This document shows positions 12,621 to 49,323 of a stretch of DNA of 64,000 bases, one piece after another. Every line of letters starts with the position of its first letter. The stretch's first letter is position 1. The stretch is taken from the IMG/VR virus record IMGVR_UViG_3300027791_000011; one strand, written 5' to 3'. A program made the position numbers and the translations under genes. The DNA is from an uncultured virus (IMG/VR IMGVR_UViG_3300027791_000011). Taxonomy: Duplodnaviria; Heunggongvirae; Uroviricota; Caudoviricetes. The notes beneath the pieces are model-generated. The model was not told where the DNA came from, did not search any database, and saw only the letters and a program-made list of their open reading frames with translations.

Positions 12621-13321
12621 TATTGTTTTCCGCTAGATTGTGGTGGTATTTGACCTGGACTATCTTGTGCAGCATCATTTGTAGTGTCACTATTTGTCGT
12701 GACAAGCATTTTCATCTCTCCATTAAGTATTCCAGCAGTTAACATTTGAAGCATATCCATTGGTAAAGGGTATTCTGAGTTATCATCATAACACACTTCT
12801 CCCTCACAACTACTATATATATTTAATTTTTCAGGATCTTCAAAAATACCCCTTACATTAATCATACCATCTGCATCTGCGTTATACAAATAAAGATAAT
12901 TTTCTAAAATATATACTTTCTTTTTATCATGAGTATATTTATCCCACGGTAAAAATTGAACCATGTGAGGTTCTACTATTTGATAACTTCTTAACCCCGT
13001 TATATCTCCTGCATATGTAATTGCGTCATTGAAATTTAGCCTCACAAATTTAGGTAGGGGCATTTTAGTTCTGAATACATCACAACTAGTTTTGAGATTG
13101 CAACATTTAGAAGCATCTATCTTTTCTAATTCTAAACACTTTAAGTCTTGTTCAACTCCATTAGAAACAAATCCGTGTTTAGCCATGTCTCTTCTAATCA
13201 TCATAGCTCTATAATACTTTATAGTAAATTTAACTTGATCTAAAGAAATGTGGTCATTGTGATTTGACCTGCCTCCTCGATAAGTATTTAAAATATTGTA
13301 TGCAATCTCATTTAATGTCAT
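12620..13321 (-). CDS. Tail ring protein
   Basis: MTLNEIAYNI...YRAMMIRRD, VRGIFEDP and YPLP motifs, plus synteny. Confidence 0.65.
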   Translation of the reverse strand: MTLNEIAYNILNTYRGGRSNHNDHISLDQVKFTIKYYRAMMIRRDMAKHGFVSNGVEQDLKCLELEKIDASKCCNLKTSCDVFRTKMPLPKFVRLNFNDAITYAGDITGLRSYQIVEPHMVQFLPWDKYTHDKKKVYILENYLYLYNADADGMINVRGIFEDPEKLNIYSSCEGEVCYDDNSEYPLPMDMLQMLTAGILNGEMKMLVTTNSDTTNDAAQDSPGQIPPQSSGKQ

Positions 13322-13326
13322 AATTT

Positions 13327-14457
13327 TTAAACGTTAGTTTGTAAATATCCTTCGTATCCTCGTAGTTTATTCCAAATATGTGCTTGTCCCGTACGTTTAG
13401 CTTCGTACCCCATCATTTTATGCCATTCATCATTACCACAAATAGAAGGAATAAATCTAACTTTAATCCCTCTGTACTCATTAACCATCTCTTTATGCAA
13501 GTGACCACAATGAACTTCCCTGTGAGTAGTTTGCGCAAACATTTCAGGTTGCTCTGTAGCCATAATTAATGGCATCTCTGCTTTTTTCTCTTTGTCTCCG
13601 TGTGTAAACATAATCATATTTGTTCCGTATTTATAATATTTTCTAGAGTCATAGTTATTATCTATTGTAACTCCTTCATCATTTATATAAAAAGCTCTTA
13701 AGAACTCTCCTGAATAAAACATTCTTTCATAGTCATGATTACCTTGTATAACAATCACATCTACAGGAGCTGTTTTGGCTAAAAAGTTTATTGCTCGTAC
13801 CATTAAATTACAATACCCAATGAACGTTTCTTGCCATCCCGCGGAGTCGTGTTGAGATGTTCCTTTAGTAGTAGCTCTCGAATACCCTTCTGAATTCATA
13901 CCGTCATTACCTATAGGTAAAAGAATTCTTTCTATCTTTAAGCCTGATGCTTTATTCATAAGATCTTTTATAGTATCCATATAAACATTTTCAGCTTGAT
14001 CTAAAGTTTGACCATCTAGTTTGCCATAATGTATATCTGGTAAAGATATCTCATACACTATAGGGTCTTCTACCGCCTCATACTTTCTCTCAACTTTAGG
14101 ACTATACTTTTTAAGAGCTTCTAGAATTTCTTCTTTAACTTCTTTCATTATATTATCCTCTCCTTTTGTAACTACAGAAAATCTATTATCTCCTTTAATT
14201 GTCTGCCAAAACTTTACAGACTTAACATCATCTTCTGCTATCCCGTTACTGTCTAAGAACTCTTTGAACTCATTGATTTCAGACTTACTTATATTATCTA
14301 AATCAAAGTCGTTTCCTTTTGCTTCTATCCTACCTTCTCTTAGTGCGTGCCCACATGCTTCAACACTGCAGTCTAAGCGTTCAGAAAGACGTTCAGCACC
14401 TTCTTTAAGGTAGCCAGGCCTGTCTTTCAAAAAGGCCTTGATTTCATCTTTTGTCAT
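13327..14457 (-). CDS. Calcineurin-like metallophosphoesterase
   Basis: All five motifs are present: DIHYG, GND, GNHD, HGD and GHLH. Confidence 0.85.
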   Translation of the reverse strand: MTKDEIKAFLKDRPGYLKEGAERLSERLDCSVEACGHALREGRIEAKGNDFDLDNISKSEINEFKEFLDSNGIAEDDVKSVKFWQTIKGDNRFSVVTKGEDNIMKEVKEEILEALKKYSPKVERKYEAVEDPIVYEISLPDIHYGKLDGQTLDQAENVYMDTIKDLMNKASGLKIERILLPIGNDGMNSEGYSRATTKGTSQHDSAGWQETFIGYCNLMVRAINFLAKTAPVDVIVIQGNHDYERMFYSGEFLRAFYINDEGVTIDNNYDSRKYYKYGTNMIMFTHGDKEKKAEMPLIMATEQPEMFAQTTHREVHCGHLHKEMVNEYRGIKVRFIPSICGNDEWHKMMGYEAKRTGQAHIWNKLRGYEGYLQTNV

Positions 14458-14476
14458 ATATATATTTAGTTAGTTA

Positions 14477-14869
14477 CTACTTTTTGGCTTTTTCAAGTGA
14501 GCGACCACCAAAGTATGCACCAATCACAGTTATCAATACTAATTGTAATAGGTCTGTCCATTTTGCTTCGACGACAAAGTTAATAACTCCTGCGTCAATA
14601 AAGATTAATAATACAGTACTTATCACTAAAAATATTAACACTAATGGTCTAACATTTTTACTCAACCAAGAATCAGACTTCATATCTGCTGACCATCTTG
14701 AAGAAATTTCCTTCTCCATGTTAGTCTCATAGTTAGCTATTAACTCTTTTATTTTTAATTCAGCGGCCAGTTTTTCTTCTTTTGAGGTGTGTAAGTTGTC
14801 TATAACTCCACCAACACTCTTCACTAATTCACCTGCTCCTGCTGAAAATATTTTTCCTAATATACTCAT
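14477..14869 (-). CDS. Holin, 3TM (GTA_holin_3TM-like)
   Basis: SDSWLSKNVRP, two hydrophobic helices and YFGGRSLEK. Confidence 0.85.
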   Translation of the reverse strand: MSILGKIFSAGAGELVKSVGGVIDNLHTSKEEKLAAELKIKELIANYETNMEKEISSRWSADMKSDSWLSKNVRPLVLIFLVISTVLLIFIDAGVINFVVEAKWTDLLQLVLITVIGAYFGGRSLEKAKK

Positions 14870-14886
14870 GTTATTTTATTTAATTG

Positions 14887-16059
14887 TTATTCACAAGGAT
14901 CTGATTTATGCTGACATCGGCCTATTTCACTACACCAATAATAATCTGTTTCACACTCTTGTTCTTCTTTTAATGTTTCTTTATCACTAATAACTTTTTC
15001 TTCTCTTTGTACTTTTTCAGTTGCTTCATATCCATCGTTATATGTAACTATCTCTGAGTACTGCTCATCAAGAATAGTATCTTCTGTATACGCTTCTTCC
15101 TCTTTAATTACTTCTGGACTTAGTACTGGAGTTATGTTTGCTAGTTCTGGCTTCTTAAGTATTTCCGCTGCTAGTTTTTTCCTTTCTTTATTTTCAATTA
15201 TTAATAGTTCTTGGTTTATTAAATACCCTTCTATCATAGACGTTACATCTACAGTACCACCCACAGTTTCAATACTTATATTTATATCAGTCCCAGCAGG
15301 AAATAGATAAGGCGCATCAAAACTTAAAGCTGGTTCATTTTGAGACTCAAACGTATTTGGTATTCTACCTTTATACACAATTTGTAGCGCTCCTTGTACT
15401 CCAGCTTTCAAACTCCAGTTACATATTTGCAACACATCTGTATGTAGCTTAATACTATTTATGTACAAGCTGTGTGCCCTAGGCACTGTATAATGAGAAC
15501 TTAACATTTTTCCTTCTTCTGCTAGAATCTTAGCGTAAATATACTGAGTAGCTATTGGAACTCCTGAAGAAACAAAATCATTTATATCTATTATATTATA
15601 TTGTCTAACACCGTCTAAAGCTGTAACATAAATATCTCCTTGATTTTTTAACAACCTTCCAGCTGTACATACTTTTATGTCATTTATTCTCCTATAATGA
15701 TTAACTAATTTTATAGGAGTTTGCCCAGACAATCTAACTTTTTCTGTGCTAATACCATAAGAAGATGTAAGTCCTGTAATTCTAACTTCTATAGCTCCTT
15801 TGTCTCCATGCCTATCTTCAACTACTTCTTCTCTCTCATCATAATCTCCATAGCCTGTATCAAGAATACTGGAACTAGATATAAAATATATCCTAGTGTA
15901 TACACTATCATTAGTTAAAACCCTAGGCACGCTAATAGGAAACGTATAGTCCCCATTACCATTAAGACCTAATCCACTACAAACATTTTCAGGGTCTGTA
16001 CTAGTTGTTATCTCCGGATTATATCCAATCCTACAAAATTTAGTTTTATACACTGCCAT
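14887..16059 (-). CDS. Hypothetical phage protein with acidic C-terminal tail
   Basis: Beta-rich core (ITGL..Y..E.V.L.G, YTVP) seen in phage structural-region proteins; function not assignable. Confidence 0.5.
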   Translation of the reverse strand: MAVYKTKFCRIGYNPEITTSTDPENVCSGLGLNGNGDYTFPISVPRVLTNDSVYTRIYFISSSSILDTGYGDYDEREEVVEDRHGDKGAIEVRITGLTSSYGISTEKVRLSGQTPIKLVNHYRRINDIKVCTAGRLLKNQGDIYVTALDGVRQYNIIDINDFVSSGVPIATQYIYAKILAEEGKMLSSHYTVPRAHSLYINSIKLHTDVLQICNWSLKAGVQGALQIVYKGRIPNTFESQNEPALSFDAPYLFPAGTDINISIETVGGTVDVTSMIEGYLINQELLIIENKERKKLAAEILKKPELANITPVLSPEVIKEEEAYTEDTILDEQYSEIVTYNDGYEATEKVQREEKVISDKETLKEEQECETDYYWCSEIGRCQHKSDPCE

Positions 16060-16062
16060 ATA

Positions 16063-16530
16063 TTACATGCTTCTATGTTCGTAAATAGTTCTACCGTTCT
16101 TCTTTAGTGCTACTGTTAGCTTCTTTCTATTTGGACGATGAGTTACATAACTTACATGTATCCAATTAGGATTATTATCATCACCAAACTCCCATATAAG
16201 CTGATCAAAAATTAAATTGTCTTTTATATAATGATACATTTCAGCATTTGTTTTATATTTAAACGTATCATCTAAATCTAAAGCTTGACCTTTCATATGT
16301 TGAGAATTCTTAGATCCACCTATTGCTGTATTAACAGGTTCTCCTCTAAACATACTAGTAATTTTTATTGGACCTCCCACCCATTCTCTCAATGGTTCAA
16401 ACAAGTGTTCAGCTATTTCATGCATGCACTTCAATTGCTCTGGCCCAGGTGTGTTATCTAAACCTCTTCTTAGAGCAGTATTACTGTGCATACCTTCTTT
16501 GTAACTTATATGTGGACTTATCTTTTTCAT
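16063..16530 (-). CDS. Peptidase M15A endolysin (Zn D-Ala-D-Ala peptidase fold)
   Basis: SQHMKGQALD, FDQLIWEF and WIHVSY motifs. Start reassigned to ATG 16530 (MKKISPHISY); the track start at 16632 overlaps the upstream gene. Confidence 0.85.
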   Translation of the reverse strand: MKKISPHISYKEGMHSNTALRRGLDNTPGPEQLKCMHEIAEHLFEPLREWVGGPIKITSMFRGEPVNTAIGGSKNSQHMKGQALDLDDTFKYKTNAEMYHYIKDNLIFDQLIWEFGDDNNPNWIHVSYVTHRPNRKKLTVALKKNGRTIYEHRSM

Positions 16531-16534
16531 ACCT

Positions 16535-16900
16535 CTATGAGAATATACCATACTCCACAATAGTATTTGCAGTTTGTGCGTGTACTTTAATATCTGCTGC
16601 AGTAGACCAAGGCAACCATGCCCACTCTCCACCTTGTATGATCAAATGATCACCAGTTGAAAAAGTTACATATAAGTAGTTACCAGCTGTAGTGTCGCAG
16701 TTTCTTAAATATACATATGTACCTGTAGAATATTCACCGTTAACTGCAAGTACTGTTGCTGCGCCCGCAGACGTGCCTGCAATATCTTTTCTTTGTACAC
16801 CACCTTCAGTAACAGTTAAAGAGTTAGTTGTCTCTGAAGACAAACTATCTGTAGTTAAATCAGTAGATGTTAAAATTAATTTTGCTTTTAATGTTGCCAT
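16535..16900 (-). CDS. Small beta-rich putative virion protein (paralog of 16936..17319)
   Basis: MATLKAKLILTSTDLTTDSLS...YVYLRN...GEWAWLPW...VEYGIF. Confidence 0.6.
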   Translation of the reverse strand: MATLKAKLILTSTDLTTDSLSSETTNSLTVTEGGVQRKDIAGTSAGAATVLAVNGEYSTGTYVYLRNCDTTAGNYLYVTFSTGDHLIIQGGEWAWLPWSTAADIKVHAQTANTIVEYGIFS

Positions 16901-16935
16901 TTTTATTTATTTTTAATTGTTAATAATTATTTTTA

Positions 16936-17319
16936 CTACGCTTCAAATATTGCATACTCTATTATAGGTGTTCCTGATGCTGCATCTACCCAAAGATAAT
17001 CGTTTTCTCCATAAGGAAAGAACATCCATTCGTTTGGACCTAACACTGCAAATGCTGACCCAACAGAACCACTACTGTCTTCTTTTATTACTATTTTTTC
17101 TGCTGCGTCAGTACTTAAATTTTTAAGATAAACATATGCTTTCTTGTCTGTAGAGTCCAAAACACCTACTGGTATCTTAGAATCTGTTGTGCTTGTTGTG
17201 TATCTTCCTATTGCTTGCTCATCTCCAGTTGCTAGTAAGCTTGCTGTCTGATTGATACTTAAGGAATCTGTATGCCAGTCTGTGCTGGTTAACGTTAATC
17301 TTGCTGATAATTTTGCCAT
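16936..17319 (-). CDS. Small beta-rich putative virion protein (paralog of 16535..16900)
   Basis: MAKLSARLTLTSTDWHTDSLS...YVYLKN...NEWMFFPY...IEYAIF. Confidence 0.6.
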   Translation of the reverse strand: MAKLSARLTLTSTDWHTDSLSINQTASLLATGDEQAIGRYTTSTTDSKIPVGVLDSTDKKAYVYLKNLSTDAAEKIVIKEDSSGSVGSAFAVLGPNEWMFFPYGENDYLWVDAASGTPIIEYAIFEA

Positions 17320-17333
17320 AATTTCTATTTTTA

Positions 17334-19505
17334 TTATTTGTTATTAATTTTTACTTGTCTAGTCACACTTCCATCATCATATATATATAATATAATTTGA
17401 TTCTTAATATCAACTACAGGCCTACCTAATAAATCTGTAGTCATTATTAAATTTTTATTTTCTGCTCGTTTAGGTAACGAAGTGATCCAATTACTTGAGC
17501 AATGTTCATATGTTAATTGACAGATATTGTCCCATTCATTAGCACAGCAATACTCATCTACTTCTATAGTCCAAGCGTAGCAGGCGTCATTTAACCAATA
17601 AGGTAAACCAGGACCAGTAATACAACCAGCATCATAGAGACAGCTAAGACTGTCAGACGTATTAGCAATTGGATTAAAGTTATAGGCTCCTTGGTCCATA
17701 CAACCTTGAACCACAGATATACATGAATTATTTTCAGTATTAGCCAGCGAATCATAGTTAATAGCAGTACTGTCAGTACAACCATAAATGTAAGCGATAC
17801 AACTAAAGTCTTCTGTATTAGCTGTTGGATTGTAATTAAGGGCACTTGGATCAGTGCAACCATAAGTAAAAGTAACGCAAGTATTATTATCGACATTGGC
17901 TAAGGGATTAAAATTAAACATTATACTATCAGTACATCCATATATAGGAAGCACACAACTAAAATCATCTGTATTACAGCTATCACAGAAGTTTAAGGCT
18001 ATTGGATTTGTACACCCTAACAGTACTCCTATACATGTAGAGTTATCTGTATTTGCTAATGGGTCGTAATTAAATGCTGCTGTGTCCATACACCCATAAA
18101 GATAAGGTATGCATGAATTATTATCTGTGTTGGCCGTTGGGTCATAATTAAATTGAGACGCATCCATACATCCAAGTATAACTGGAAGACAAGAGGTATC
18201 CTCAACATTAGCTAAAACATTATAATTAAATGCTAAAGGGTCTGTGCATCCATAAACAACTCCAATACAACTACCATCATCAGTATTTGCTAGTGAGTCG
18301 TAATTAAATGCTAATTGGCTCATACAACCATATATTATAGCAATACAAGTATCTGGAACATTAGCGTTAGGATTGTAGTTAAATGCTAAAGGCTGCATAC
18401 ACCCTGTTACAATTGCTATACATGAGCCAGTAAGCTCTGTGTTAGCTAAAGGATTGTAGTTAAGCGCTAGCGGATTCATACATCCTAAAATAACTAAAGT
18501 ACTACAAGATCCATTATCATAATCATAATTAGCGCTGTATTCTAAATAAACAGGATTTGTACACCCTGGATTGTAATAGCAACTAACATCATCTGTGTTT
18601 GCTAAACTATCATAGTTAATAGCTGTTGGGTATGTACATCCAAATATCTTTTCAATACATAAATTACCACAATAAGTTGATGTTTTATATTTAAACAAAG
18701 GCTGTATAAAAGGAGCTAATACTTCTATCATTATATCTCCTAAAGGATTTGTTAATTTAAATCCACAATGAGAAGCTGTTAAAGAAGCTTGTTGTGAAAT
18801 GTAAAACTTAAACTCGACCTCCATTGGTGAGTTTAGATTTATTATAAAGTCTTGTGTATATAAAGCAGTATCTATAGTATAGTACCACGTATTAGTATCT
18901 TGTTTGACTTCTAAGTACGATGATTGCCATCCATCGCCTATCAGATCATTGAGTGTTAGTATATAATCACAATTAGGTATCAATGCCATTGTATTAGCTA
19001 CTGGGTCATAGTTATACATACTATCGTCTACACATCCAAATACTTTTAAAGTATTACATGAACCGTCGTCTGTATCAGCTAAAGGGTTAAACTCTACATA
19101 CATGTGATCCATGCAGCCCATGACGGGTGGGCAAGCATCAGATACAAAAAAGTGCATTGAATCATTACCAAAAGCAGGATCTGTACCAAACACAAGAGTG
19201 TCATTACATTGTTTAACATAATAAGATCCATCTAAACCGCCCCACATAGCCCCATTTAATCCATCACCATAACTATCATATATTGTAAATACTAAATTAC
19301 CTTCTGGCAACATAACAGGTATTACCATAGACTGATAATTAACAGCACTATAATAAGGTCCATCAGAAGCAACTATAGTTCCAGTCGTATCTTTTATATC
19401 CCAAGATGTTTCTGACATATATTGATCTAAATAAATATGTACAGACGATGGAACTTGTCCAAATACAGTAAGTGGTAATAATAGTAATACTAGTAGTTTC
19501 TTCAT
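17334..19505 (-). CDS. Secreted Cys-repeat protein (about 15 GCxDxxAxNYxxxANxDDxSC repeats) with flavobacterial-type C-terminal sorting-like domain
   Basis: Sec signal MKKLLVLLLLPLTVFG (likely start 19505; track start 19517), ~26-aa repeats, and C-terminal DLLGR...LYIYDDGSV. Confidence 0.8.
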   Translation of the reverse strand: MKKLLVLLLLPLTVFGQVPSSVHIYLDQYMSETSWDIKDTTGTIVASDGPYYSAVNYQSMVIPVMLPEGNLVFTIYDSYGDGLNGAMWGGLDGSYYVKQCNDTLVFGTDPAFGNDSMHFFVSDACPPVMGCMDHMYVEFNPLADTDDGSCNTLKVFGCVDDSMYNYDPVANTMALIPNCDYILTLNDLIGDGWQSSYLEVKQDTNTWYYTIDTALYTQDFIINLNSPMEVEFKFYISQQASLTASHCGFKLTNPLGDIMIEVLAPFIQPLFKYKTSTYCGNLCIEKIFGCTYPTAINYDSLANTDDVSCYYNPGCTNPVYLEYSANYDYDNGSCSTLVILGCMNPLALNYNPLANTELTGSCIAIVTGCMQPLAFNYNPNANVPDTCIAIIYGCMSQLAFNYDSLANTDDGSCIGVVYGCTDPLAFNYNVLANVEDTSCLPVILGCMDASQFNYDPTANTDNNSCIPYLYGCMDTAAFNYDPLANTDNSTCIGVLLGCTNPIALNFCDSCNTDDFSCVLPIYGCTDSIMFNFNPLANVDNNTCVTFTYGCTDPSALNYNPTANTEDFSCIAYIYGCTDSTAINYDSLANTENNSCISVVQGCMDQGAYNFNPIANTSDSLSCLYDAGCITGPGLPYWLNDACYAWTIEVDEYCCANEWDNICQLTYEHCSSNWITSLPKRAENKNLIMTTDLLGRPVVDIKNQIILYIYDDGSVTRQVKINNK

Positions 19506-19506
19506 T

Positions 19507-19869
19507 TTAAAAATCACTCATTAGTTGGTTATCAATTTCTTCTTGTACTTCTTCTTTTGTAGCTACCATCTTAAAACTTAAATCAGCTTGGAACCTAGCT
19601 ACTTCAACTCCATCTTTAAATATTATAATAGTAGGTATAACTGCTATCTTATGTTTCTTTTGCAACTCCGTGTCTTTACTTACATCTATATATGCAGCTG
19701 TTTGAATATCTGTAAGGTCATATGCCCACTCTACTTTATTACTCTCGTTCCACCCTGCATTAAATACTGCTATAGACATCTGCCCATACGACGCATTACT
19801 AAGTAACATAAAAAATATTATTAACATATACATACCAAATATTTTCCAAGTTACATCAGGCTTTTCCAT
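19507..19869 (-). CDS. Exported thioredoxin-fold protein lacking CxxC
   Basis: Signal/TM segment, then FNAGWN at the usual F.A.WCxxC position, YIDV and IAVIPTIIIFKDGVEVARF. The protein has no Cys. Confidence 0.75.
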   Translation of the reverse strand: MEKPDVTWKIFGMYMLIIFFMLLSNASYGQMSIAVFNAGWNESNKVEWAYDLTDIQTAAYIDVSKDTELQKKHKIAVIPTIIIFKDGVEVARFQADLSFKMVATKEEVQEEIDNQLMSDF

Positions 19870-20150
19870 TATCTGTTATATAATTTATCCTCTATTCTTT
19901 CAAGAGTCTTTTTCATTTCGTCTACATCTGATTTTGTATCCATAATAGTCTGCCTAATCATTTTATCTTTCATATCAAACTCCATACGAGTAACTTCTGG
20001 GTCTGGTGGTACTGGCATTTCCATAGCCCTTGCTATATCAGCTTGCAGCATAAACCACATACTAACTAGTGTAAATATTAACGCTGCAATTCCTCCTAAT
20101 GTTTTTATACTTAACTTTAAGGTTGTATCTTCGTTTAGTTCTTTGTCCAT
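19869..20150 (-). CDS. Single-TM protein with C-terminal coiled coil
   Basis: TLGGIAALIFTLVSMWFML helix and coiled-coil tail; TAATG-coupled to both neighbours. Confidence 0.65.
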   Translation of the reverse strand: MDKELNEDTTLKLSIKTLGGIAALIFTLVSMWFMLQADIARAMEMPVPPDPEVTRMEFDMKDKMIRQTIMDTKSDVDEMKKTLERIEDKLYNR

Positions 20151-20236
20151 TATTTTTTACATTTTACAGGACACCATCCTAAACATACTTTACCAAACGT
20201 TATTGCCTTAACAGCCTTACATATAAATTTCTTCAT
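20150..20236 (-). CDS. 28-aa cationic Cys-rich peptide MKKFICKAVKAITFGKVCLGWCPVKCKK
   Basis: Below the ORF-track cutoff. It has an A-rich leader, exactly fills the gap, and its TAA overlaps the next ATG (TAATG at 20150). Confidence 0.7.
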   Translation of the reverse strand: MKKFICKAVKAITFGKVCLGWCPVKCKK

Positions 20237-20245
20237 TTTTTATTT

Positions 20246-21340
20246 TTAAAATATTATATAATTTACTCCTAGTTTAAAGTCATACCACTCTCTATTCCAA
20301 TACTTATTATATTTACCCTCTACAAAGTATCCTAAATTTTTATTTACCTTTATACCATATATTAATCCTGCAGAATAATCATACCATTGATCCTCTGTTA
20401 TGTAATTATGGTAAGAGAACTCACTGCCATCATTGTAGTGGTACGGCATTAAATTGCCCCATGCGTGCAACCATGTGTTTTTCTTATATTTATAATAATC
20501 AAACCCAAACACTAAAGAGTGTTGAATTATCTTTTTTAACTCGCCCCTTTTCTTTTCTGTATACTCTGCTAGAACTTGAGGTATAACTACTTCTTTCCAT
20601 ACTTCAGCACTATTAGCAACTATATTTCCACTAGGATCAGTATATTCATTCGCATATAAATCATAACTATATCCTTCTTCTATAGCTAAATGCGTATAAT
20701 GTAAACTACCATTATCCAACAACCACTCTGCTAAAGGATCATATCCATAAGGCTCAGCAAGTCTATGTGCTGCGCCTATGCTAAAAGACAAGTCTGAGTT
20801 TTTCTTAACTCTATATCTTTCTGACAATTCAAAATATTCTATATCTGCAAATCCGTCTTTTAAATATTCTACTTTAGCAGCAAATTGATTAACACAATAA
20901 GGACCATCACATGCGTCGTCAGAGCTATATCTAATAAAATGATGTTGATCTATATAGTCAACTCCTTGTTGCCTAGCATAATCGATTTCAAATAAATATT
21001 CAAATCCTTGTACTTTACCAACTGTAGCTGCATCACTGTAGTTAGACTCAGTACCGTCATAAAAAGTATTAGCTTTATTTTCATATCCAAATCTAGCTAT
21101 CTTTCGTATACCAAATGTAATAGAGTAATCATAAGGAGTGTTTATAACACCTTCTTCTAATTGCCCTGAAGTAATAGCAAATGTAGATCTAGGAGATAAC
21201 GATGTTCCACCGTTAACTGCTCCATACACAGTAGAAAATTTTAATTGTTTTTTAAACTCAGATTTAAAATCAAAATCTATTTGAGCATTAACTGTAAAGC
21301 TAATTAAAAGGATTAATAAAATATTTAGAATTTTGTTCAT
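20246..21340 (-). CDS. Putative outer-membrane beta-barrel protein
   Basis: Sec signal (..SFTVNA|Q), alternating aromatic strands and a C-terminal BAM-type signal FKLGVNYIIF. Confidence 0.7.
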   Translation of the reverse strand: MNKILNILLILLISFTVNAQIDFDFKSEFKKQLKFSTVYGAVNGGTSLSPRSTFAITSGQLEEGVINTPYDYSITFGIRKIARFGYENKANTFYDGTESNYSDAATVGKVQGFEYLFEIDYARQQGVDYIDQHHFIRYSSDDACDGPYCVNQFAAKVEYLKDGFADIEYFELSERYRVKKNSDLSFSIGAAHRLAEPYGYDPLAEWLLDNGSLHYTHLAIEEGYSYDLYANEYTDPSGNIVANSAEVWKEVVIPQVLAEYTEKKRGELKKIIQHSLVFGFDYYKYKKNTWLHAWGNLMPYHYNDGSEFSYHNYITEDQWYDYSAGLIYGIKVNKNLGYFVEGKYNKYWNREWYDFKLGVNYIIF

Positions 21341-21636
21341 TACCCTGATACTTTCACTGCTCCACTACTATTCCATAATTGACCAGCACTTCCTGGATCC
21401 CTGGTTGGTAATGAATCTCCCATTGTGTTTGGTAATAGAAGCTCAGCACTTATTACATATCTTCTTAACTCATCTATATCTTCTTGCATTTGTTGCATTT
21501 GATATAGCATGGCTGCTTCAGCAGGATAAGCTTCTAATGTAGTGTGATTTCCAGCGTCAAATTTAGCTTTCATTGCGGCTTTTATATCGCCTGATCTTGA
21601 ATGTATTGCTTCTTGTTTTTTACTTGCTAATGCCAT
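21340..21636 (-). CDS. Hypothetical protein (fibre-associated)
   Basis: Coiled coil plus C-terminal LPTRDPGSAGQLWNSSGAVKVS motif typical of phage fibre-region proteins. Confidence 0.55.
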   Translation of the reverse strand: MALASKKQEAIHSRSGDIKAAMKAKFDAGNHTTLEAYPAEAAMLYQMQQMQEDIDELRRYVISAELLLPNTMGDSLPTRDPGSAGQLWNSSGAVKVSG

Positions 21637-21643
21637 ATTGTTT

Positions 21644-23830
21644 TTATATTAATGCTAAGGTTACTGTAGCTCCATATATGAGAATATTTGCTGCTCCAGG
21701 AGTACATTTAATTACTAAATCTTGAGTTGCTGATGAAGGTATGTTTGTTATTGCTTGGTTTGTGTTGAACGTAGCGTTTGTTGATGCGACCGCATTTGTA
21801 GAACCAGTTTGGTAGTTAAATGGTGAGATAACTGCGGCGTTAGAAGTATTAGCACTTGCGTGTACTTGAACGTATGTTACTTTGAATAGTGGTGGTATTT
21901 CCACAAATGCGTAGAAATCATCAGTAGTACCGTGCCCCCTAACTGCTAGCGTATTAGCTACAGCGTCATGAACATACGCCGGTCTTCCAGTATCAGGATT
22001 GTTCTTAAACTCATTAGGAAATACTTTTATTGTTAGTGATTGAGTTTTAATGTGGTTACCTTCTATTGAAGCTGCTCCAGCTGCAACTCTTTCAAAAGTA
22101 CAGTCAGGCTCTTCTAAACTGATTGACCCAGTAGTTGTTACAACACCAGTTATATTTGTATTACCTTCTAATTCAATTGTAGTGGCAGCATCTAAAGTTA
22201 AAACAGTACCTTCTATATCAACAGTTGTCCCTGAAGTAATAGTTGATGCTCCTGTAACATCTATATCTAAGACACCTGCGTCTATATCAACTATAGACCC
22301 AGCATTTGCATCAGCATCTAAATGAAAAGCAACTCCTGCTAAATGTTCAGTAATTATACGGACGTCACTAGCAGATCCTTGAGACATTATTGTTGTTTGA
22401 CCCCCAGAATCAAAGTACTGTGCTCCTACTGATGTAATGGCTGTTGCTCCCGCTACATCTACGTCTAGCCCTCCCGCAGTAGCATTTATATCTATTGCGT
22501 TAGTTCCTGTTCCTGCAGAGTTAATTGATAGTACTTGCGCTCCTCCTCCAACTACCGCTAAAGAAAGATCTTTACCAGATCCTGTAACGTGTATGTTAGA
22601 GTCATCTGTACCATCTATAGATATAGTAGTTCCATCTAACGATGCAGCTCCTAGTGCATTTAAATCTAAAATACCAGCATCGATTTTAACTTCTGAGCCA
22701 GCGTCAGCATTTGCAGCTATATGAAATGCAAGGCCTGCAGTGTGTTCAGTAATCATTCTTATATCACTTGCATTTCCCTGGGACATTATAATTGTTTGTC
22801 CGCTAGAGTCAAAAGTTTGAGCACCTACTGTTGTAATGACTGTTGCTCCTTCTACGTCTACATCTAACCCACCTGCAGTGGCGTTTATGTCTATTGCATT
22901 GGTTCCTGTACCAGCTGAAGTAAGTGATAACACTTGAGCACCACCACCAACTACACCTACAGTAAGGTCTTTACCAGACCCTGTGACATTTATATTAGAA
23001 TCGTCTGTTCCGTCTATAGACACAGTAGCCGCATCTATTGTAGCAGTTCCTGTAACATCTATATCTAGAATACCAGCATCAATATCTACAATCGATCCTG
23101 CGTTTGCATTTGCATCTAAATGGAATGCTGTTCCCGCTAAATGCTCAGTGATTACTCTAACATCGCTTGCGCTCCCTTGAGCTAATATAGTAATTTGCCC
23201 GCTAGCGTCAATGGTAGATATTCCAGTTGTAGTAGTTATATGTGTAGCAGCATTAAGCGTGCTAGCTCCTGTTACATCTATGTCTAAAATACCAGCGTCA
23301 ATTTGTACTTCTGAAGCTGCATTTGCGTTTGCGTCAAGGTGGAAAGCAACTCCTGCTGTGTGAGCGGTAGTTATTTTAATATCACTTGCTGCTCCTGCGG
23401 TATCAATAGTAATTGCACCTGAAGTATCTATATCTAAAGCTACAGCATCTAAATCTAAATTTCCAGATCCATCATAAGCTAATGCTTCTGTATCATCTCC
23501 AAATGTTGCTCCAGTAGCACCTGCAATTGTAACTGTAGAAGCTGCATCTATAGTAGTAGCACCATCTGAATCTATATCCAATATACCTGCATCTATATTT
23601 AATATTGAACCTGCAGTTCCATTACATTCAATTTTAATTGCCTCTCCTGCTGTATGTTCTGAGACGATATGAATATTACTAGCAGCTCCTTCACCTGCTA
23701 TATACATACTACCATCACCAATACCAATTATATCTACATTACCATCTACTTGGAGGCCTCCCCATTTTTTTGCTGTTGTTCCTATACTACCTTCATTATC
23801 GGCTCTAGGGACTATATTTTTTGTTGCCAT
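21644..23830 (-). CDS. Tail fibre/spike with internal repeats
   Basis: N-terminal IVPRADNEGSIGTTAKKW, repeated IDAGILDID/EHxAGxAFH units, and Ala/Gly/Thr/Asp-rich composition. Confidence 0.75.
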   Translation of the reverse strand: MATKNIVPRADNEGSIGTTAKKWGGLQVDGNVDIIGIGDGSMYIAGEGAASNIHIVSEHTAGEAIKIECNGTAGSILNIDAGILDIDSDGATTIDAASTVTIAGATGATFGDDTEALAYDGSGNLDLDAVALDIDTSGAITIDTAGAASDIKITTAHTAGVAFHLDANANAASEVQIDAGILDIDVTGASTLNAATHITTTTGISTIDASGQITILAQGSASDVRVITEHLAGTAFHLDANANAGSIVDIDAGILDIDVTGTATIDAATVSIDGTDDSNINVTGSGKDLTVGVVGGGAQVLSLTSAGTGTNAIDINATAGGLDVDVEGATVITTVGAQTFDSSGQTIIMSQGNASDIRMITEHTAGLAFHIAANADAGSEVKIDAGILDLNALGAASLDGTTISIDGTDDSNIHVTGSGKDLSLAVVGGGAQVLSINSAGTGTNAIDINATAGGLDVDVAGATAITSVGAQYFDSGGQTTIMSQGSASDVRIITEHLAGVAFHLDADANAGSIVDIDAGVLDIDVTGASTITSGTTVDIEGTVLTLDAATTIELEGNTNITGVVTTTGSISLEEPDCTFERVAAGAASIEGNHIKTQSLTIKVFPNEFKNNPDTGRPAYVHDAVANTLAVRGHGTTDDFYAFVEIPPLFKVTYVQVHASANTSNAAVISPFNYQTGSTNAVASTNATFNTNQAITNIPSSATQDLVIKCTPGAANILIYGATVTLALI

Positions 23831-23851
23831 ATTCTTTTATTTTTTATATTA

Positions 23852-24106
23852 TTAAATTACTTCAGGCATTATATCACCATTTGAATCTATATCCCAGCAC
23901 TCACTAATACTAGGAGATACTTCTGGCATAATGTCGCCACCCCCATCTAAATCCCAAGTATCACAAAAATCTGTAATAATATCTTGGGGTCGTAAGTTCT
24001 GCACTCCATCATCCTCAAAAAAGCAACATAAAGTAAATTGACTTAAGACTGGATAATTAGCTAAACGTATATTACTAATACCTAATATGTTTTGTAATAT
24101 AGTCAC
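23852..24106 (-). CDS. Hypothetical protein with duplicated WDxDxxGDIMPEV motif
   Basis: ORF track; two tandem copies of the motif at the C-terminus. Confidence 0.55.
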   Translation of the reverse strand: MTILQNILGISNIRLANYPVLSQFTLCCFFEDDGVQNLRPQDIITDFCDTWDLDGGGDIMPEVSPSISECWDIDSNGDIMPEVI

Positions 24107-24405
24107 TATTTATAGTATGCCATTATTGACCCATCCACTAAAGCTACAGCTTTAAAATCTCCGTAGTATGGAAGTCCTGTTATTAAATCTATATCTGTAG
24201 TTACAGTATTAGCTCCATTTTCCTCCCAATTTACAATAGATGCAGAAACATCTAAAGTTGTATTATCCGCTATAGCTATTATACAATAAAAGTGCCCATA
24301 GTGTTTAGCTGTATTGTTTATTACATTAGCCCCCTGCTGTCCATAAGGAGCCTTTAGTAGATCTTCTACCATATTTGTTGTGTCCCTATCTTTTATTAAT
24401 GCCAT
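24106..24405 (-). CDS. Hypothetical small virion-type protein
   Basis: ORF in operon; ends YYGDFKAVALVDGSIMAYY. Confidence 0.55.
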   Translation of the reverse strand: MALIKDRDTTNMVEDLLKAPYGQQGANVINNTAKHYGHFYCIIAIADNTTLDVSASIVNWEENGANTVTTDIDLITGLPYYGDFKAVALVDGSIMAYYK

Positions 24406-24418
24406 ATTTTCTTATTTA

Positions 24419-24829
24419 TTAATTATCGATTACTATCTTACGAATACTCATTATTTGTTTTGCACTAATATCAAAAGGTAGCTTATCAGAATAAATAGTA
24501 TAAAGTTGAATAGTAGCTTCTTCTTCTAATAGCTTTTCAACTTCTTTTAATTGTTCCTGTCTAGCTTGTTCAAGATCTTTATGCTCATCTTCTAATTTTT
24601 TAGCTGCAGCTTCGTTTCCGTCTTTATGTAACTTTTGAACTTCTTCAGCTACCTTTCTAAACTCATCTGTTGGTTTACTTGCTTCTTCAATGTGTTTTAA
24701 TTCTTTCTGAATATTCTCTATGTTTTTAGCTACTACCATAGCGAATTTAACTCCACGCAATTCTGAACATTCGTTTAGACCTTGCATTAATTCTACTAAC
24801 TGCCTGTTTGTTACTGTTTGTGTTGCCAT
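24419..24829 (-). CDS. Coiled-coil protein, possible fibre assembly chaperone
   Basis: Helical and charged; lies between fibre genes. Confidence 0.5.
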   Translation of the reverse strand: MATQTVTNRQLVELMQGLNECSELRGVKFAMVVAKNIENIQKELKHIEEASKPTDEFRKVAEEVQKLHKDGNEAAAKKLEDEHKDLEQARQEQLKEVEKLLEEEATIQLYTIYSDKLPFDISAKQIMSIRKIVIDN

Positions 24830-24858
24830 CGTTTTAAATTTATTTAGTTTATATTAGT

Positions 24859-26181
24859 TTATGCGGGTGTTGCAAAATACGGAACCCACTTATCCGTGCC
24901 ATTTATATTTATTCTTGCCCATCCATCATTTGCGTTTGTGTGATTAGGAAATGTTCCATGTAAACTAGAAACGCATGTAGACGCATCTGTTGCTGATGAT
25001 CCAGTAAATATGATGAATGGTTCATCATTGTCATTTTGATCTAACTCTAAACAAGCGGCTCCAGTTGTATCGTTTTGTATGTCAACTACAGCATTGTTAT
25101 TAGCTCCTGTACTACCAAAGGTAAAGTGTTTATTAGATCCGTGAATTTTCATAACTTGAGCAATAGTACCTCCATCAGTTACAGAAAGATTAATATCTCC
25201 ATCTCCTGATCCTGAATTACCTGCTAATAAATTAATAGCTCCTCCTGCAGCAGTGCCGTTTGCAGCACCTCCAGATAATGTTATAGCTCCTCCAGCTGTA
25301 TTACTAGCTGTACCAGCAGAGCCAGTTATTTTAAATTCATTACCAGCTCCTGTACTAGGAGACATAACGTTTATTTCTCTTGTGTCACCAGATGTAAAAG
25401 ATATATTATCTCCTACAGTTAATGCTGCAGTATTAGTAGTATCATATGTTGCAGTAGGACCACTGTGTCCTATAAAAACTCTACCAGTAGTATCAATGTT
25501 TATACCTTCCGATGAGCCATCACCACTAAGCCATCCTATTCCTAAGTCTAAATTATGACCATTTAAACTAACTTCATTATTAAAAACTACTGATGATGTA
25601 AATGTAACGTCATTTAAATCCACATTTAAAGTATGTGGAGAAGTAGTAAGATCCCAAGCTAATCCCGCACCTGCTGGTATTAAAGTAGAGAGTGATGCAT
25701 ACTCTGCATTTAAGCCGTCAGTTTTTAAAACTTGATTAGCTGTTCCTACTCCAGATAGAGTTAATGCATTTATAGCAGATTGTTGATTTAAAGCTCCTGT
25801 ACCTCCGTTTTCTATAGATAGTACGCTTACTCCTCCGTCAGATGCTAAATCTATAGTTTGTAAAAATTTAGATTTCTCATTGTTGCAACTATTTAAATCT
25901 AATTCTGCTGGATAAAAGTTTGCCATGATAGTTCCACTAGAAGTATTAAAAGCTAAAAGATTTGTATTAGATTTAATACTTTTTAATTTAATTCTATTCC
26001 CTGTAGTAGATTCTATCAATCCAACTCCAATACCACTATTAGTTACAGTTGTAGCTAAATCAGATGCTTTAAATTTTGCTTCTCTATTACTTGTAATATC
26101 TGCTATATACACATACCAAGCTCCAGCATTAATCTGTTCTATTACTGCGTTTTGTAAATTTTTTATTTTTGTATTTGCCAT
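24859..26181 (-). CDS. Tail fibre-like protein
   Basis: LSIENGGTGA, GTANQVLKTDG, GGAITLSGG/GGAINLLAG repeats and C-terminal WARININGTDKWVPYF. Confidence 0.7.
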   Translation of the reverse strand: MANTKIKNLQNAVIEQINAGAWYVYIADITSNREAKFKASDLATTVTNSGIGVGLIESTTGNRIKLKSIKSNTNLLAFNTSSGTIMANFYPAELDLNSCNNEKSKFLQTIDLASDGGVSVLSIENGGTGALNQQSAINALTLSGVGTANQVLKTDGLNAEYASLSTLIPAGAGLAWDLTTSPHTLNVDLNDVTFTSSVVFNNEVSLNGHNLDLGIGWLSGDGSSEGINIDTTGRVFIGHSGPTATYDTTNTAALTVGDNISFTSGDTREINVMSPSTGAGNEFKITGSAGTASNTAGGAITLSGGAANGTAAGGAINLLAGNSGSGDGDINLSVTDGGTIAQVMKIHGSNKHFTFGSTGANNNAVVDIQNDTTGAACLELDQNDNDEPFIIFTGSSATDASTCVSSLHGTFPNHTNANDGWARININGTDKWVPYFATPA

Positions 26182-26192: not shown

Positions 26193-29100
26193 TTAAAAGT
26201 CAAAATTCTGTATGTCATCTACTCCGTCTACCCCTCTTATAGGAGAAGATGATTCGTTTGGATCTGGTAGATAATCAACATCTTCGTCTGTTTTAGCCTT
26301 GCTTGCGCAGTCTGGGCAGATCTTTGTTAAATAAGTGGTCCAAGTTAGTAAAATTTTAGGAGATAAGCAAGACCCGCGGAACCCTAATCCGAATCTTTTT
26401 ATTAAGTATCTTATTAACAATACCCTCCACACATCTATAGTATTGTAAGTGAAACTGTTCATATCTAGTACTCCTCCTAGCATTTTATCATAAACAGTAG
26501 TAGCAAGATTACCTACACATCCTACAATATCTTCAAGATCGTCAAGACATTCAGGGCAGTCTGGTTCTGCTGAAGCCGTTCCCGCACATCTAAATACACC
26601 ATTACAGTATGTTAAATGCTGCGTTCCTGTACATTCGTGTCCTACAAATTGAGCAGTTGTAGAATGAAACTCTCCATTTATATAAGACTCACTTGATATT
26701 GGAGTTCCTCCCCCATCTAGTACAGTTATATTTTGAAGGTCTGTAGCTGTAAGTGTAGGGTCTGCTAAGTACGCAACTGTTGGTATACCCCCTACATTTT
26801 GATTATATAATTCAAATGCAAAAGCTGCTGGTCCCGTAACATTTTTACCATCAAATTGTAAAGTATGTTTTCCTGGGAGTAAAGCTATAGGAAATAAATT
26901 CCAAAATGTATTATTAGATGTTTGATTAAGTAAATGTATATACACCTGCCCGTCTACACTAAATCTAACTTCATCGTCTCCAGCTAAAGCTAGTATAAAA
27001 TTAGTAGCAACTGGTATATCTATAGTACATATTGTAATACCAGGTCTAGAATTAACAGGCTGATGAGCTGTAGTAGTAGAAGTATATTGATTAAACCATT
27101 GAGGCCATATACCTATATCTTTTAATCTATTATTATATACTGGGAAGTTCATAGTCCAAGATGGATCTGTTGCTAAGATACCTGCTCCAACGTCTATAAC
27201 TTCAGCTTCTCCTGGTAGAGTAGGTAGTTGCGATGTGAATGGTAATAAATTTACATCTTGACCTACAGGAACTGGTGATGTATAAGTACCTCCAGTCCAT
27301 ACTCCAAATATTTTAGCGCCAACTTGCCCCCAAGTTAAAGTGTTTGCGCAGCAAGGCATGTTTTGAGCTACAGTAACTGCTGTCCAATTATTCTTCCATA
27401 CTCCAGATATATTTAAACAATCTACAGGATTATTAACACCTCCTATAACTGTACCTGCATTAGCATCAAAACATTTACCATATAACGGTGCAGCTTCATT
27501 TTCAAATCCTATACATGTATTGAAGTTTGGATTAACTATTAAATTTCCAGTCCATACTCCTGCAGCGTTAGTACAATCTATGTAATTATTATTACCTGCA
27601 ACACTACAAGTACCAGTATTTAAGTCTTCTGTGTATTGATTTTCATCTAACTCATAACCTGGAGGACACCCACAATCACAGTTTTCCGCTCCAAATATAT
27701 CGATAAGATTTAACATTCCATTATCTAAAACGGCTGCTGCACAATTATCACAATTTTCTATTGGAGCTATAAGTGGAGAACCACTTGTCCCTCCATATGA
27801 TGATGCAGGTGCATCTATTACATTATTAGTAACTCTAACAACATACATAGCTTCTAGTGCCGCCGCTCCAAGTGGAGCAGTAACAGATAAATTTGTTAGA
27901 GTAAATTCTACTGGTGCTCCCATTTGAGCTTGTGTTGGTGTATAATAGAAATAACCTTGAGAATTTAAACCGCCATCTATTTCAGGACATATTTCAGTAC
28001 CTGCACTAGTTTCTGTTAATTGAAAACACCATCCGCTATTATTTGCGCTACATGATGGAGTTCCACATTCGTGTCCTCCTTGCCCTCCTCCTGCTGTAAA
28101 ATCAAATTTTACTTGATGGTCTGCACAACAATCTAAATTACAAGATCCTGTTCCTGGCACATCACAACAAACATCTCCGTAATAAGGAGAAAATAAATTA
28201 CTATCATATGATAAAGAAGATGCTCCTGGATCTTCTATAAATACTTCAATTGCCCAGTTCATACCTGGCCACCAAAAATCTTCTTGAACTTCAAATGTAA
28301 ATGTTCCATTAGTACCCCCCATAATAGATACTCCTGTGTGTCCTGTTGTAGTAACATTTAAATTAGATATACTTTCTAACTCTACTTTTGTACCTCCATT
28401 CCATATAGCTACTGAATGATCTGCAAATATATCTACAAAATCTGCATAACAATTATCCTCTGTACAATCTACACAAAAGTTAACACATGTAGCTGGTCCT
28501 CCAGGATTACAATCTTCTATCATATCATCAAACATAGGATTAAAGCAAGGACTAGCATCATGAACCCATATTCTATATATACCAGAATCTAAATTATCAA
28601 AGCCATAATATGTAATATTAGTATTAGCATCTACTATAGAAGTCCAAGTTCCTGGTGTTGTTGTGCTAGCATTATAATTAGTTATATTAAATATTGTAGG
28701 CCCACTGTCAGTAGCATTAGGATCAGTATTGACCCAATGTAGACCATCGTCAATACTGTAATATAAATCTCCTACTCCTCCACTTGCAGTAATAGTTATA
28801 GACCCACATCCACAATCATTACAATAAGGATGAGTATATTGTATGTCCTCAATAAGTACTGGGTTGTTTGCTATAGTCCAAGTACCTGTAACAGTTTCAC
28901 CACAAAAGTCTGTAACAGTAACTTCATAATCCCCAGGGCATAACGCTCTTATATCTTCAATAGTGGCTCCAGGCCACGTAGCAGTATTAGTTGTACTAGT
29001 ATGAGCCCCTGAAGTAGTTATCCATGAATATGTAAATGGTCCAACTCCATCATGTACAGTCAAATCAATTTCTCCACTACACTCGTCGCAACAGTTAGAA

Positions 29101-47795: not shown

Positions 47796-48073
47796 TACAT
47801 TACTCCTAATACTAGATGTTCAGGAGCCATAACATAACTCTCTTCATCTATAATTACAATGTGTCCTTTTCCTGCTGGATCTAACATAACGGTATCACCC
47901 TTCTTAACCCATTGCACTTCTGGGCCAACTTCTAATACTTCTAGAATATTTGTTTTCATTGCTTCTTTAACGGAATCAGGCAGAATTATACCGCTCTCTG
48001 TTTCTTCTTTTCTTGGATCAGGCATTATTATCCAACTCCTAACAGGTTTAAATGTGAATTTTTTCTTTGTCAT
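47795..48073 (-). CDS. groES: GroES-like co-chaperonin (cpn10)
   Basis: FKP..., ETESGIILPDS mobile loop, VLEVGPEVQWVKKGDTV and terminal VLGVM. Confidence 0.85.
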   Translation of the reverse strand: MTKKKFTFKPVRSWIIMPDPRKEETESGIILPDSVKEAMKTNILEVLEVGPEVQWVKKGDTVMLDPAGKGHIVIIDEESYVMAPEHLVLGVM

Positions 48074-48096
48074 AGTTTATTATTAATTAGTTTATG

Positions 48097-48129: not shown

Positions 48130-48147
48130 CGTTTCTTAATATTTTTT

Positions 48148-49318: not shown

Positions 49319-49323
49319 CGATG

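Follow-up and report, generated by a model that had tools for sequence, protein, structure and literature searches.

Here we analyze a cassette of five co-directional, closely packed open reading frames (ORFs) on the minus strand (positions 17334-21340) of a 64,000-nucleotide stretch of DNA, hereafter called the window, from an uncultured virus of the class Caudoviricetes (IMG/VR record IMGVR_UViG_3300027791_000011). The products are an outer-membrane β-barrel protein (BB), a short cationic Cys peptide (pep28), a single-pass membrane protein (TM93), an exported protein with a thioredoxin fold (TRX) and a large Cys-repeat protein (hereafter the Cys protein); BB, TM93 and TRX together are referred to as the trio. 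The cassette is best read as two nested things, not as one dedicated display system: the trio would be an envelope complex linked to the lysis genes, and the Cys protein would be a passenger secreted by the host. We hold this interpretation tentatively, giving it somewhat less than an even chance of being right.

Distribution of the trio and its linkage to lysis genes

The tight packing described in the initial annotation of the window was found as stated: one-base overlaps occur at 21340, 20150 and 19869, a 9-nt gap separates the genes of BB and pep28, and the stop codon of TRX (19507) abuts the ATG of the Cys protein (19505). The ORF of the latter can be extended to a GTG (17334-19517, 727 aa), the ATG at 19505 (723 aa, MKKLL) being the more likely start. 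In BB, TRX and the Cys protein alike, a hydrophobic N-terminal stretch precedes (A/G)-Q, and among the 262 ATG-initiated ORFs of the window that were screened, these three are the only ones with a convincing signal peptide-like N-terminus. Gln at position +1 after the signal peptide is found in 117/124 TRX and 123/146 BB sequences, as well as in all 19 N-termini recognized among 63 orthologs of the Cys protein (in the remaining ones a Pro residue breaks the hydrophobic run required by our regular expression). This feature agrees with the Q-rule described for Bacteroidetes signal peptides (PMC5837995). The view that these are exported envelope proteins rather than ordinary virion parts is thus borne out by the signal peptides, the +1 Gln and the barrel fold of BB (see below).

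Among 5062 candidates, 3699 homologs of BB were identified with E-values ≤1e-3, mostly proteins from marine metagenomes, which correspond to 310 representatives upon clustering at 50%. For the scan of IMG/VR one alignment of the family (A1) proved too diverse as a seed and another (A2) worked, while single distant barrels used as queries gave no viral loci. We kept two sets of 80 loci each: set 1 (L001-L080), from 459 pattern matches of which 440 were confirmed, and set 2 (L085-L164), seeded with barrels ~36% identical to that of the window, for which at least 590 of 601 were confirmed among the matches listed. A later collection of 83 loci comprises set 2 and three loci from metagenome-assembled genomes (MAGs). 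The complete trio is present in 126 of the 160 IMG/VR loci (64 in set 1 and 62 in set 2), and its proteins share 60-80% identity. The stop codon of TM93 overlaps the start of TRX or lies within 5 nt of it in 124 of 131 loci. The barrel gene is upstream of TM93-TRX in 105 loci and downstream in 24. Tblastn searches of set 1 detected the Cys protein in 75 loci, TM93 in 70, TRX in 67 and pep28 in 17. Profile hidden Markov models (HMMs) applied to the later 83 loci found BB in 76, TM93 in 70 and TRX in 65, but the Cys protein, searched with its conserved C-terminal portion, in only 8; since the three partners are kept in these distant loci, the trio outlives the Cys protein. The cassette had been treated from the outset as a unit, and its genes do co-occur, standing together in hundreds of viral contigs; with the flanking genes of the window being rare in set 1, this association exceeds chance.

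In 78 of the 126 loci with the complete trio, a holin or an endolysin gene is found within 1 kb of it, a linkage that the initial annotation had not noticed. In set 1, such a gene is contained in the fetched DNA of 46 of the 64 trio loci (≤1 kb away in 34), and in set 2 it is present in 51 of 62 (≤100 nt away in 34, ≤1 kb in 44). The usual gene orders are BB-TM93-TRX-M15-holin, M15 being a peptidase endolysin, or a gap-free BB-TM93-TRX-holin, and the identities of the M15 and holin proteins were confirmed with Pfam in example loci. In the window the endolysin and the holin lie 0.8 kb and 2.5 kb downstream of the cassette, and the module sits in a co-directional block of structural and late genes.

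The barrel family looks phage-only. It was found in one of 301 Bacteroidota genomes, which holds a binned viral contig; among species genomes it occurs only in three MAG contigs of inconsistent taxonomy (mis-binned), and the 30 Atlas clusters nearest to the barrel are all viral. Among 10 carrier records, four encode a crAss-like head protein and three near-complete ones (40-60 kb) do not, so the trio is spread, together with lysis genes, across phage lineages. Megablast and tblastn searches of 50,697 phage records revealed no relative of the locus or of the barrel, and no paper describing the trio was found in the open-access literature searched.

In other phages, accessory genes are inserted in the module (e.g. 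L009:6689-7051, L034:4435-4962, L013:9148-9558 and L033:7726-7935). The inserted genes include a homolog of staphylococcal nuclease (PF00565, E-value 1e-9), a PAP2 phosphatase (E-value 3e-9), a small barrel-like protein of 136 aa with a signal peptide, a lipoprotein-like protein of 69 aa and several extremely basic proteins.

The outer-membrane barrel

BB carries a signal peptide ending in VNA before the +1 Gln and terminates with NYIIF; the C-terminal residue is F or Y in 112 of 144 members of the family. The AlphaFold2 (AF2) model built from 28 sequences (pLDDT 76, pTM 0.70) has 14 strands according to DSSP and a helical insert at residues 196-270. Taken together, the signal peptide, the closed antiparallel barrel of the model and the C-terminal aromatic β-signal identify BB as a predicted outer-membrane protein, in agreement with the initial annotation. 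Comparison with solved structures by VIA reported Tsx as the best match (Z 14.1, rmsd 4.2, 196 residues aligned, 11% identity), followed by KdgM (Z 13.0) and NanC (Z 12.7), with 12-strand autotransporter translocators at Z 10-12 and many solved outer-membrane proteins at Z 10-14; Foldseek likewise reported generic outer-membrane barrels. A loop at residues 81-111 is poorly modeled and not assigned to any strand, yet it is as conserved as the strands.

Sequence searches with BB yielded no Pfam family at E-value ≤10, no PHROG or NCBIfam family and no match among solved structures. Apart from one relative (E-value 1e-24, 23% identity), a search of BFVD yielded phage barrels of a generic kind. The Tsx family was rejected as an assignment, since Pfam gave no match at E-value ≤10 and the likeness is structural only, at 11% identity. 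BB resembles Tsx, KdgM/NanC and the NalP/EstA translocators in its fold (Z 12-14 over ~170-196 aligned residues), but differs from all of these barrels by an identity of 10-13%, the lack of any family match, the large conserved insert 196-270 and loop 81-111, and its restriction to phages.

Some cargo of type IX secretion systems (T9SS) that bears a type B C-terminal domain (CTD) pairs with a cognate PorP/SprF barrel, as in SprB/SprF, and the initial annotation had likened BB to such barrels. This assignment has to be abandoned: the PorP/SprF family (PF11751) was not matched in Pfam at E-value ≤10, no six-frame match was found at E-value ≤1 in the nearest viral record, and hhalign of the BB family against six real PorP/SprF proteins gave a probability of 0.44%. 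The comparison with the T9SS shuttle barrel PorV (6h3i_F) that had also been suggested revealed weak resemblance only (Z 7.6), within the range of generic barrels and well under the 14.1 for Tsx. The locus resembles SprB/SprF in that a large repeat-rich surface protein is encoded near an outer-membrane barrel, and departs from it in that the barrel is not of the PorP/SprF type, no type B CTD was found, and in the window the barrel gene is four genes away from that of the cargo.

TM93, TRX and pep28

The window copy of TRX matches the Thioredoxin family of Pfam (PF00085) with an E-value of 2.3e-4, albeit slightly below the cut-off (21.6 vs 23.5 bits), and TIGR01068 with an E-value of 2e-5; its orthologs from L112 and L139 score above the Pfam cut-off (~29 bits). 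An alignment of 37 sequences revealed invariant Q30 (the +1 residue after the signal peptide), F36, W40, N41, N44, P79 and T80 and a nearly invariant F120 near the C-terminus. P79-T80 corresponds to the cis-Pro loop, while W40-N41-x-x-N44 (WNxxN) replaces WCxxC in all 37 sequences, and a C..C string occurs, at whatever position, in only 6 of 132 orthologs. Judging from these sequences, the thioredoxin fold is real and redox-dead, as had been predicted in the initial annotation, and WNxxN looks like a conserved new site, not a result of decay.

TM93 shows no relationship to any Pfam or PHROG family. In the alignment of 25 sequences, a conserved transmembrane segment is joined by a Pro-rich linker to a C-terminal segment that is likewise conserved, looks helical and contains the motif EVTRMEFDMKDxxIRQTI...KLY; ~55 residues lie beyond the membrane. 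A homolog of 224 aa (L163:8089-8763) possesses an N-terminal extension of 110 residues, with a poly-Pro/Gln linker before the transmembrane segment, and this extension may hint at a cytoplasmic regulatory domain. It is also the single indication that TM93 would have its N-terminus in the cytoplasm and its helix in the periplasm.

The accessory peptide pep28 contains 8 Lys, no acidic residues and 4 Cys, and its helical moment is 0.86. Its orthologs (25-49 aa, in the same position, with the motif MKKxICKxVKxITFGKIC) are limited to the 17 loci mentioned above, and no family match was found in Pfam or PHROG. Phage phiKT has a cationic lysis peptide, 'disruptin'. According to Kongari et al. 2018 (PMC6139136), phiKT is also among the spanin-less phages. 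Like disruptin, pep28 is small, strongly cationic and encoded in a lysis-linked module, the two being set side by side by description only; pep28 has, however, 4 conserved Cys residues and occurs in a minority of the loci.

The Cys protein and its C-terminal tail

The Cys protein contains 43 Cys residues and 13 copies of the repeat C-x(6-9)-N-[YF]-...-C. From the N-terminus, it is composed of the signal peptide, a β-sandwich (SETSW...DSYGDG), a second β domain, the 13 repeats, a YCCxNEWDxIC domain and a short tail. The AF2 model has an overall pLDDT of 45 and is confident only at residues 17-122 and 178-276, which correspond to the β-sandwiches and match generic folds only (Z≤6.9); in this poor model of the whole protein the tail shows 3 strands with pLDDT of 59-69. 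No match among solved structures was found by sequence search. The N-terminal domain is highly variable among orthologs, with at least four types, MAM included.

Two endings follow the conserved YCCxNEWDxIC domain in the orthologs. The majority, including the protein of the window, possess a ~35-residue tail (…ITDLLGRP…FYIYDDGTVEKK…) in which D, L, G, R, Y and G are invariant (D691, L693, G694, R695, Y709 and G712 in the window protein). The other ending, present in six orthologs, is a canonical T9SS type A domain: among eight orthologs submitted, Por_Secre_tail (PF18962) was reported above the threshold in four (35-46 bits, cut-off 27), and in two more the canonical CTD was recognized by the YPNP…GxY pattern and the alignment. 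In the window Cys protein and in its last 101 aa, searches of Pfam and NCBIfam at E-value ≤10 identified no type A CTD (Por_Secre_tail/TIGR04183); neither the whole protein nor its C-terminus matched the type B CTD (TIGR04131) or any other NCBIfam family at E-value ≤10. Hence the link to T9SS made in the initial annotation holds for these orthologs, but no CTD of either type is recognizable in the window protein itself. A phage-encoded T9SS type A cargo has been described in 'Cryophage' (Bellas et al. 2020, PMC7468147). The present family resembles it in the combination of a Sec signal peptide, a C-terminal sorting element and a variable adhesin- or enzyme-like passenger in a Bacteroidota phage, six orthologs being canonical in this respect. 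It differs in that the tail of the window protein has ~35 residues and 3 strands and escapes the CTD models, occurs on three types of passenger and shows strong linkage to the trio.

An HMM of the tail gave matches in 120 loci, to 144 ORFs in all; a hydrophobic N-terminus is present in 119 of 120 such ORFs, and within the window the HMM matches the Cys protein alone (E-value 3e-11). Among the trio-complete loci a tail gene is present in 56/64 of set 1 and 49/62 of set 2 (105/126 overall, 83%), and the 49 genes of set 2 all lie ≤100 nt from the trio span. The tail thus recurs beside the trio on three unrelated passenger types: besides the Cys protein, set 2 includes a class of 148-310 aa with exactly 9 Cys and acidic repeats, encoded directly after the barrel (its LDL-receptor-A-like motif is weak and below threshold), and a class of 170-182 aa encoded between TRX and the endolysin, which consists of an 'ETxW…DSYGDGWNG' sandwich, as at the beginning of the window Cys protein, followed by the tail. 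Because the tail is common to the three classes, a small protein with the tail is in fact encoded in many trio loci that seem 'cargo-free'.

The tail is also found, in a single copy each, in 4 of 301 Bacteroidota genomes and in 4 of 81 genomes of one family. Three of these bacterial secreted proteins are listed in Table 1, and in none of them is the tail covered by a Pfam family. They are encoded in ordinary chromosomal settings of genomes that lack the barrel; SprA is present in 5/5 bacterial genomes with tail proteins.

Cys-rich proteins without a signal peptide occur as well. In the window, a 2256-aa protein (26193-32963, minus strand) has 69 Cys residues and SprB repeats (PF13573, E-value 6.6e-11), a repeat typical of the gliding adhesin of Bacteroidota, and lacks the 13-fold repeat of the cassette protein. 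The Cys repeat of the cassette is found in proteins of 1100-1580 aa without a signal peptide (L004:709-4842, L010:87-4622, L012:403-5013), encoded upstream of a 440-aa gene, i.e. in a fibre-like position, and in an annotated virion structural protein of cyanophage S-CAM3 (50% identity over 58 residues).

A putative lysis-linked envelope complex with a secreted passenger

We propose that in marine phages of Bacteroidota the trio forms part of the late lysis cassette and that BB, TM93 and TRX form a complex that would reach from the inner to the outer membrane, a physical link that we infer from gene order and coupling. TM93 is likely to be translationally coupled to TRX, and TRX could bridge TM93 and the barrel. 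Once the holin and the endolysin have acted, the complex would weaken or breach the outer membrane, a step that in other phages is the job of spanins and that here would proceed without a lipoprotein. The Cys protein would be a variable Sec-exported passenger embedded in the trio, with the short tail occupying the place of the canonical T9SS domain of the orthologs. Host machinery, most likely T9SS, would probably bring the passenger to the cell surface or into the medium late in infection, and there it may act as an adhesin-like or carbohydrate-binding protein.

Two-component spanins (lambda Rz/Rz1, T4 PseT.3/PseT.2; PMC6139136) are likewise encoded by small, tightly coupled or overlapping genes that adjoin the holin and endolysin genes, and the trio, which is located in the lysis cassette as spanins are, would also combine a single-pass inner-membrane partner, helical-looking in its C-terminal segment, with an outer-membrane partner. 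The differences are that the outer-membrane partner of the trio is a 364-aa barrel and not a lipoprotein, that a third, thioredoxin-fold periplasmic protein is needed, and that TM93 is shorter than the known i-spanins and shares no sequence or family match with them; the function of the trio is predicted only. A pairing of the trio with a lipobox-containing o-spanin was considered and rejected: none of the 262 window ORFs appeared lipobox-like by a crude regular expression, and the outer-membrane component is the barrel. Neither PHROG nor Pfam reported a spanin among the 44 window proteins scanned, the window being part of a genome. Kongari et al. 2018 (PMC6139136) detected no spanin in 91 of 677 phages, including Bacteroides phage B124-14 and Croceibacter phages P2559S/Y.

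Several points weigh against this proposal. The T4 i-spanin has 117 aa in total (Kongari et al. 2018, PMC6139136); by comparison TM93 is short and probably would not cross the periplasm alone. A β-barrel is without precedent as a part of a spanin, and nothing points to membrane fusion. Gut crassviruses encode spanin-annotated genes according to a review of the Crassvirales (PMC10136315), so phages of Bacteroidota are not generally spanin-less; moreover, a spanin could be encoded elsewhere in the genome, of which the window holds a part. A tail gene accompanies the trio in more loci (105/126) than expected for an unrelated insertion, which a four-part system would fit better. Finally, the tail is rare in bacteria (4/301 and 4/81), which would be surprising in a sorting signal of the host; it gives no match to Por_Secre_tail, hhalign against canonical CTDs gives 6.4%, over the last 17 columns only, and it is modeled with 3 strands, not the 7 of the Ig-like sandwich of T9SS CTDs (PMC11285876).

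A more far-reaching version, in which the trio is a lipoprotein-free three-protein opener of the outer membrane that replaces spanins, WNxxN is a binding site, and the tail of ~35 residues acts as a minimal sorting signal of a new kind that docks adhesin-like passengers to the trio or to the host T9SS, to be displayed or released just before bursting, appears to us doubtful.

Alternative explanations

The most serious competitor is a four-part system for display or export, in which the barrel takes or anchors the tail, TRX acts as a chaperone and TM93 tethers or energizes the assembly, such that the host becomes coated with an adhesin chosen by the phage. It would account for three findings: in 105 of 126 loci a tail gene with a signal peptide stands inside or next to the trio (all 49 cases of set 2 being ≤100 nt away), one tail is shared by three unrelated passenger types, and the tail is rare in bacteria. 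The autotransporter translocators among the structural matches of BB (Z 10-12) and the loop 81-111, conserved like the strands, are also in keeping with it. However, the idea that BB and TRX serve the Cys protein, put forward in the initial annotation, is weakened because the trio and the tail are found apart in three situations. First, 5 of the 6 loci with a canonical CTD on the passenger retain the trio (the sixth is cut upstream). Second, the fetched DNA shows no nearby tail gene in 13 of the 62 distant loci with the trio (a few of them are cut short, and some are gap-free lysis cassettes, BB-TM93-TRX-holin). Third, enzymes with the tail are encoded by bacterial genomes that lack the barrel. 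In addition, neither HMM nor profile comparison places the barrel with PorP/SprF, and no reason would be given for the close association with the holin and endolysin genes. A dedicated system in which the barrel exports the cargo is therefore disfavored, and we consider the four-part system unlikely.

If the exported proteins instead altered or covered the phage receptor, thereby sparing the progeny (receptor masking, superinfection exclusion or prevention of readsorption), one would understand why the N-terminal domain of the passenger comes in at least four types, MAM included, as in a specificity module, why larger Cys-repeat proteins without a signal peptide stand in tail-fibre positions of related phages, and why the genes are located in a co-directional late block, which suits the protection of progeny at release. 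The trio, with its 60-80% identity, is nevertheless far more conserved than an arms race over receptors would lead one to expect, its late placement is ill-suited to classical early exclusion, and no homology to known exclusion proteins was found in the Pfam and PHROG searches (the PADLOC library was not searched); we regard this explanation as quite improbable. An auxiliary Tsx/KdgM-like channel that raises the uptake of nucleosides or sugars in infection is suggested by the top structural matches of BB (Tsx, Z 14.1; KdgM/NanC, Z ~13). The identity is only 10-13%, with no match to the Tsx or KdgM families at E-value ≤10, and the nearly equal scores of autotransporter barrels (Z ~12) indicate that the match mainly reflects the fold of small barrels; since the obligate TM93-TRX partners, the late placement and the linkage to lysis would also lack an explanation, we find a role in uptake very improbable. 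Hardly credible, in our opinion, is that the proteins are ordinary virion parts (fibre or decoration) that merely look exported: the module does lie inside the structural and late gene block, and the Cys repeat does occur in the virion structural protein of a cyanophage (50% identity over 58 residues), but three of the proteins have signal peptides of the cleavable type, whose +1 Gln is conserved in over 100 orthologs, BB is an outer-membrane barrel and six orthologs of the Cys protein bear T9SS sorting domains.

Phage, host and neighboring genes

Matches to PHROG identified the terminase, the portal and the major head protein in the window; the latter shares 27-29% identity with those of crAss-like phages and Flavobacterium (psychrophilum) phages. 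The source of the DNA is a marine crAss-like phage of Flavobacterium-type bacteria, a Bacteroidota host being indicated by the crAss-like kinship, the +1 Gln of the signal peptides and the T9SS sorting domains of the orthologs. The nearest viral record (41 kb) is rated 48% complete, and the genome is therefore probably larger than the window. At ~48000-50000 the gene orientation and the GC skew both change sign: below this region late structural and lysis genes are encoded on the minus strand, and above it the plus strand carries genes of replication (DNA polymerase, helicases, primase, RIIA-like). Coordinates of the cassette, its neighbors and the bacterial tail proteins are collected in Table 1.

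Table 1. Genes of the cassette, neighboring genes of the window and bacterial proteins with the short tail.
Feature	Position	Strand	Basis or remarks
BB (outer-membrane β-barrel, 364 aa)	20246-21340	-	signal peptide, AF2 barrel
pep28 (cationic Cys peptide, 28 aa, accessory)	20150-20236	-	ORF and 17 orthologs
TM93 (single-pass membrane protein, 93 aa)	19869-20150	-	conserved transmembrane segment and C-terminal helical segment
TRX (exported thioredoxin fold without CxxC, 120 aa)	19507-19869	-	Pfam/TIGR match, alignment
Cys-repeat protein (723 aa)	17334-19505	-	signal peptide, 13 Cys repeats, short C-terminal tail
Paralogous pair (121/127 aa)	16535-16900 and 16936-17319	-	between the cassette and the M15 endolysin
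M15 peptidase endolysin	16063-16530	-	PF08291, E-value 3.2e-14; phrog_894, E-value 4e-27
Holin	14477-14869	-	phrog_3427, E-value 6e-31; PF11351, 23.7 bits vs cut-off of 24.8
GH16+CBM48 enzyme, bacterial tail protein	L172:373-1626
β-lactamase-family hydrolase, bacterial tail protein	L173:1492-2847	-
105-aa protein, thrombospondin-3-like motif, bacterial tail protein	L174:1486-1803	-

The initial annotation placed the cassette between tail fibres and lysis genes. The lysis genes do follow downstream, with the two paralogs intervening before the endolysin. On the other side, the cassette is preceded by an ORF of 98 aa and by a repeat protein of 728 aa; the sole match of the latter is a PHROG of unknown function (E-value 0.004), and 'tail fibre' is a putative label for it. 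The genes flanking the cassette are rare in set 1 (fibre-like 9, 98-aa 3 and 390-aa 3 of 80 loci). The start of the M15 endolysin is predicted from the translation to be an ATG (MKKISPH). The 121/127-aa paralogs have no family match in Pfam or PHROG, and their family forms the largest cluster in the related loci; its 110 members are spread over 56 of 80 loci, where 2-3 copies are frequent. Between the endolysin and the holin lies the 390-aa ORF (14887-16059, minus strand), with a Cys-rich acidic C-terminus and no family in Pfam or PHROG. Farther upstream, an 84-aa ORF (23852-24106, minus strand), found in 5 of 80 related loci, ends with a duplicated motif (…WDLDGGGDIMPEV… / …WDIDSNGDIMPEV…). 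Within 13000-25000, predicted sigma-70 promoters (44 vs 56.8 in shuffled sequences, the scan having no coverage of Bacteroidota promoters) and terminators (4 vs 4.3) were not in excess over shuffles.

Implications

The route by which phages of Bacteroidota pass through the outer membrane is poorly known, and the barrel family, which stands beside holin and endolysin genes in several phage lineages, is a concrete candidate for the missing step; the set may open or remodel the outer membrane of the host by a novel route. The short tail may mark a sorting signal outside the current CTD models, common to phage passengers and a few bacterial enzymes. These predictions would matter for how marine Flavobacteriia turn over carbon and for the engineering of surface display or lysis in the phylum of these hosts, the Bacteroidota.

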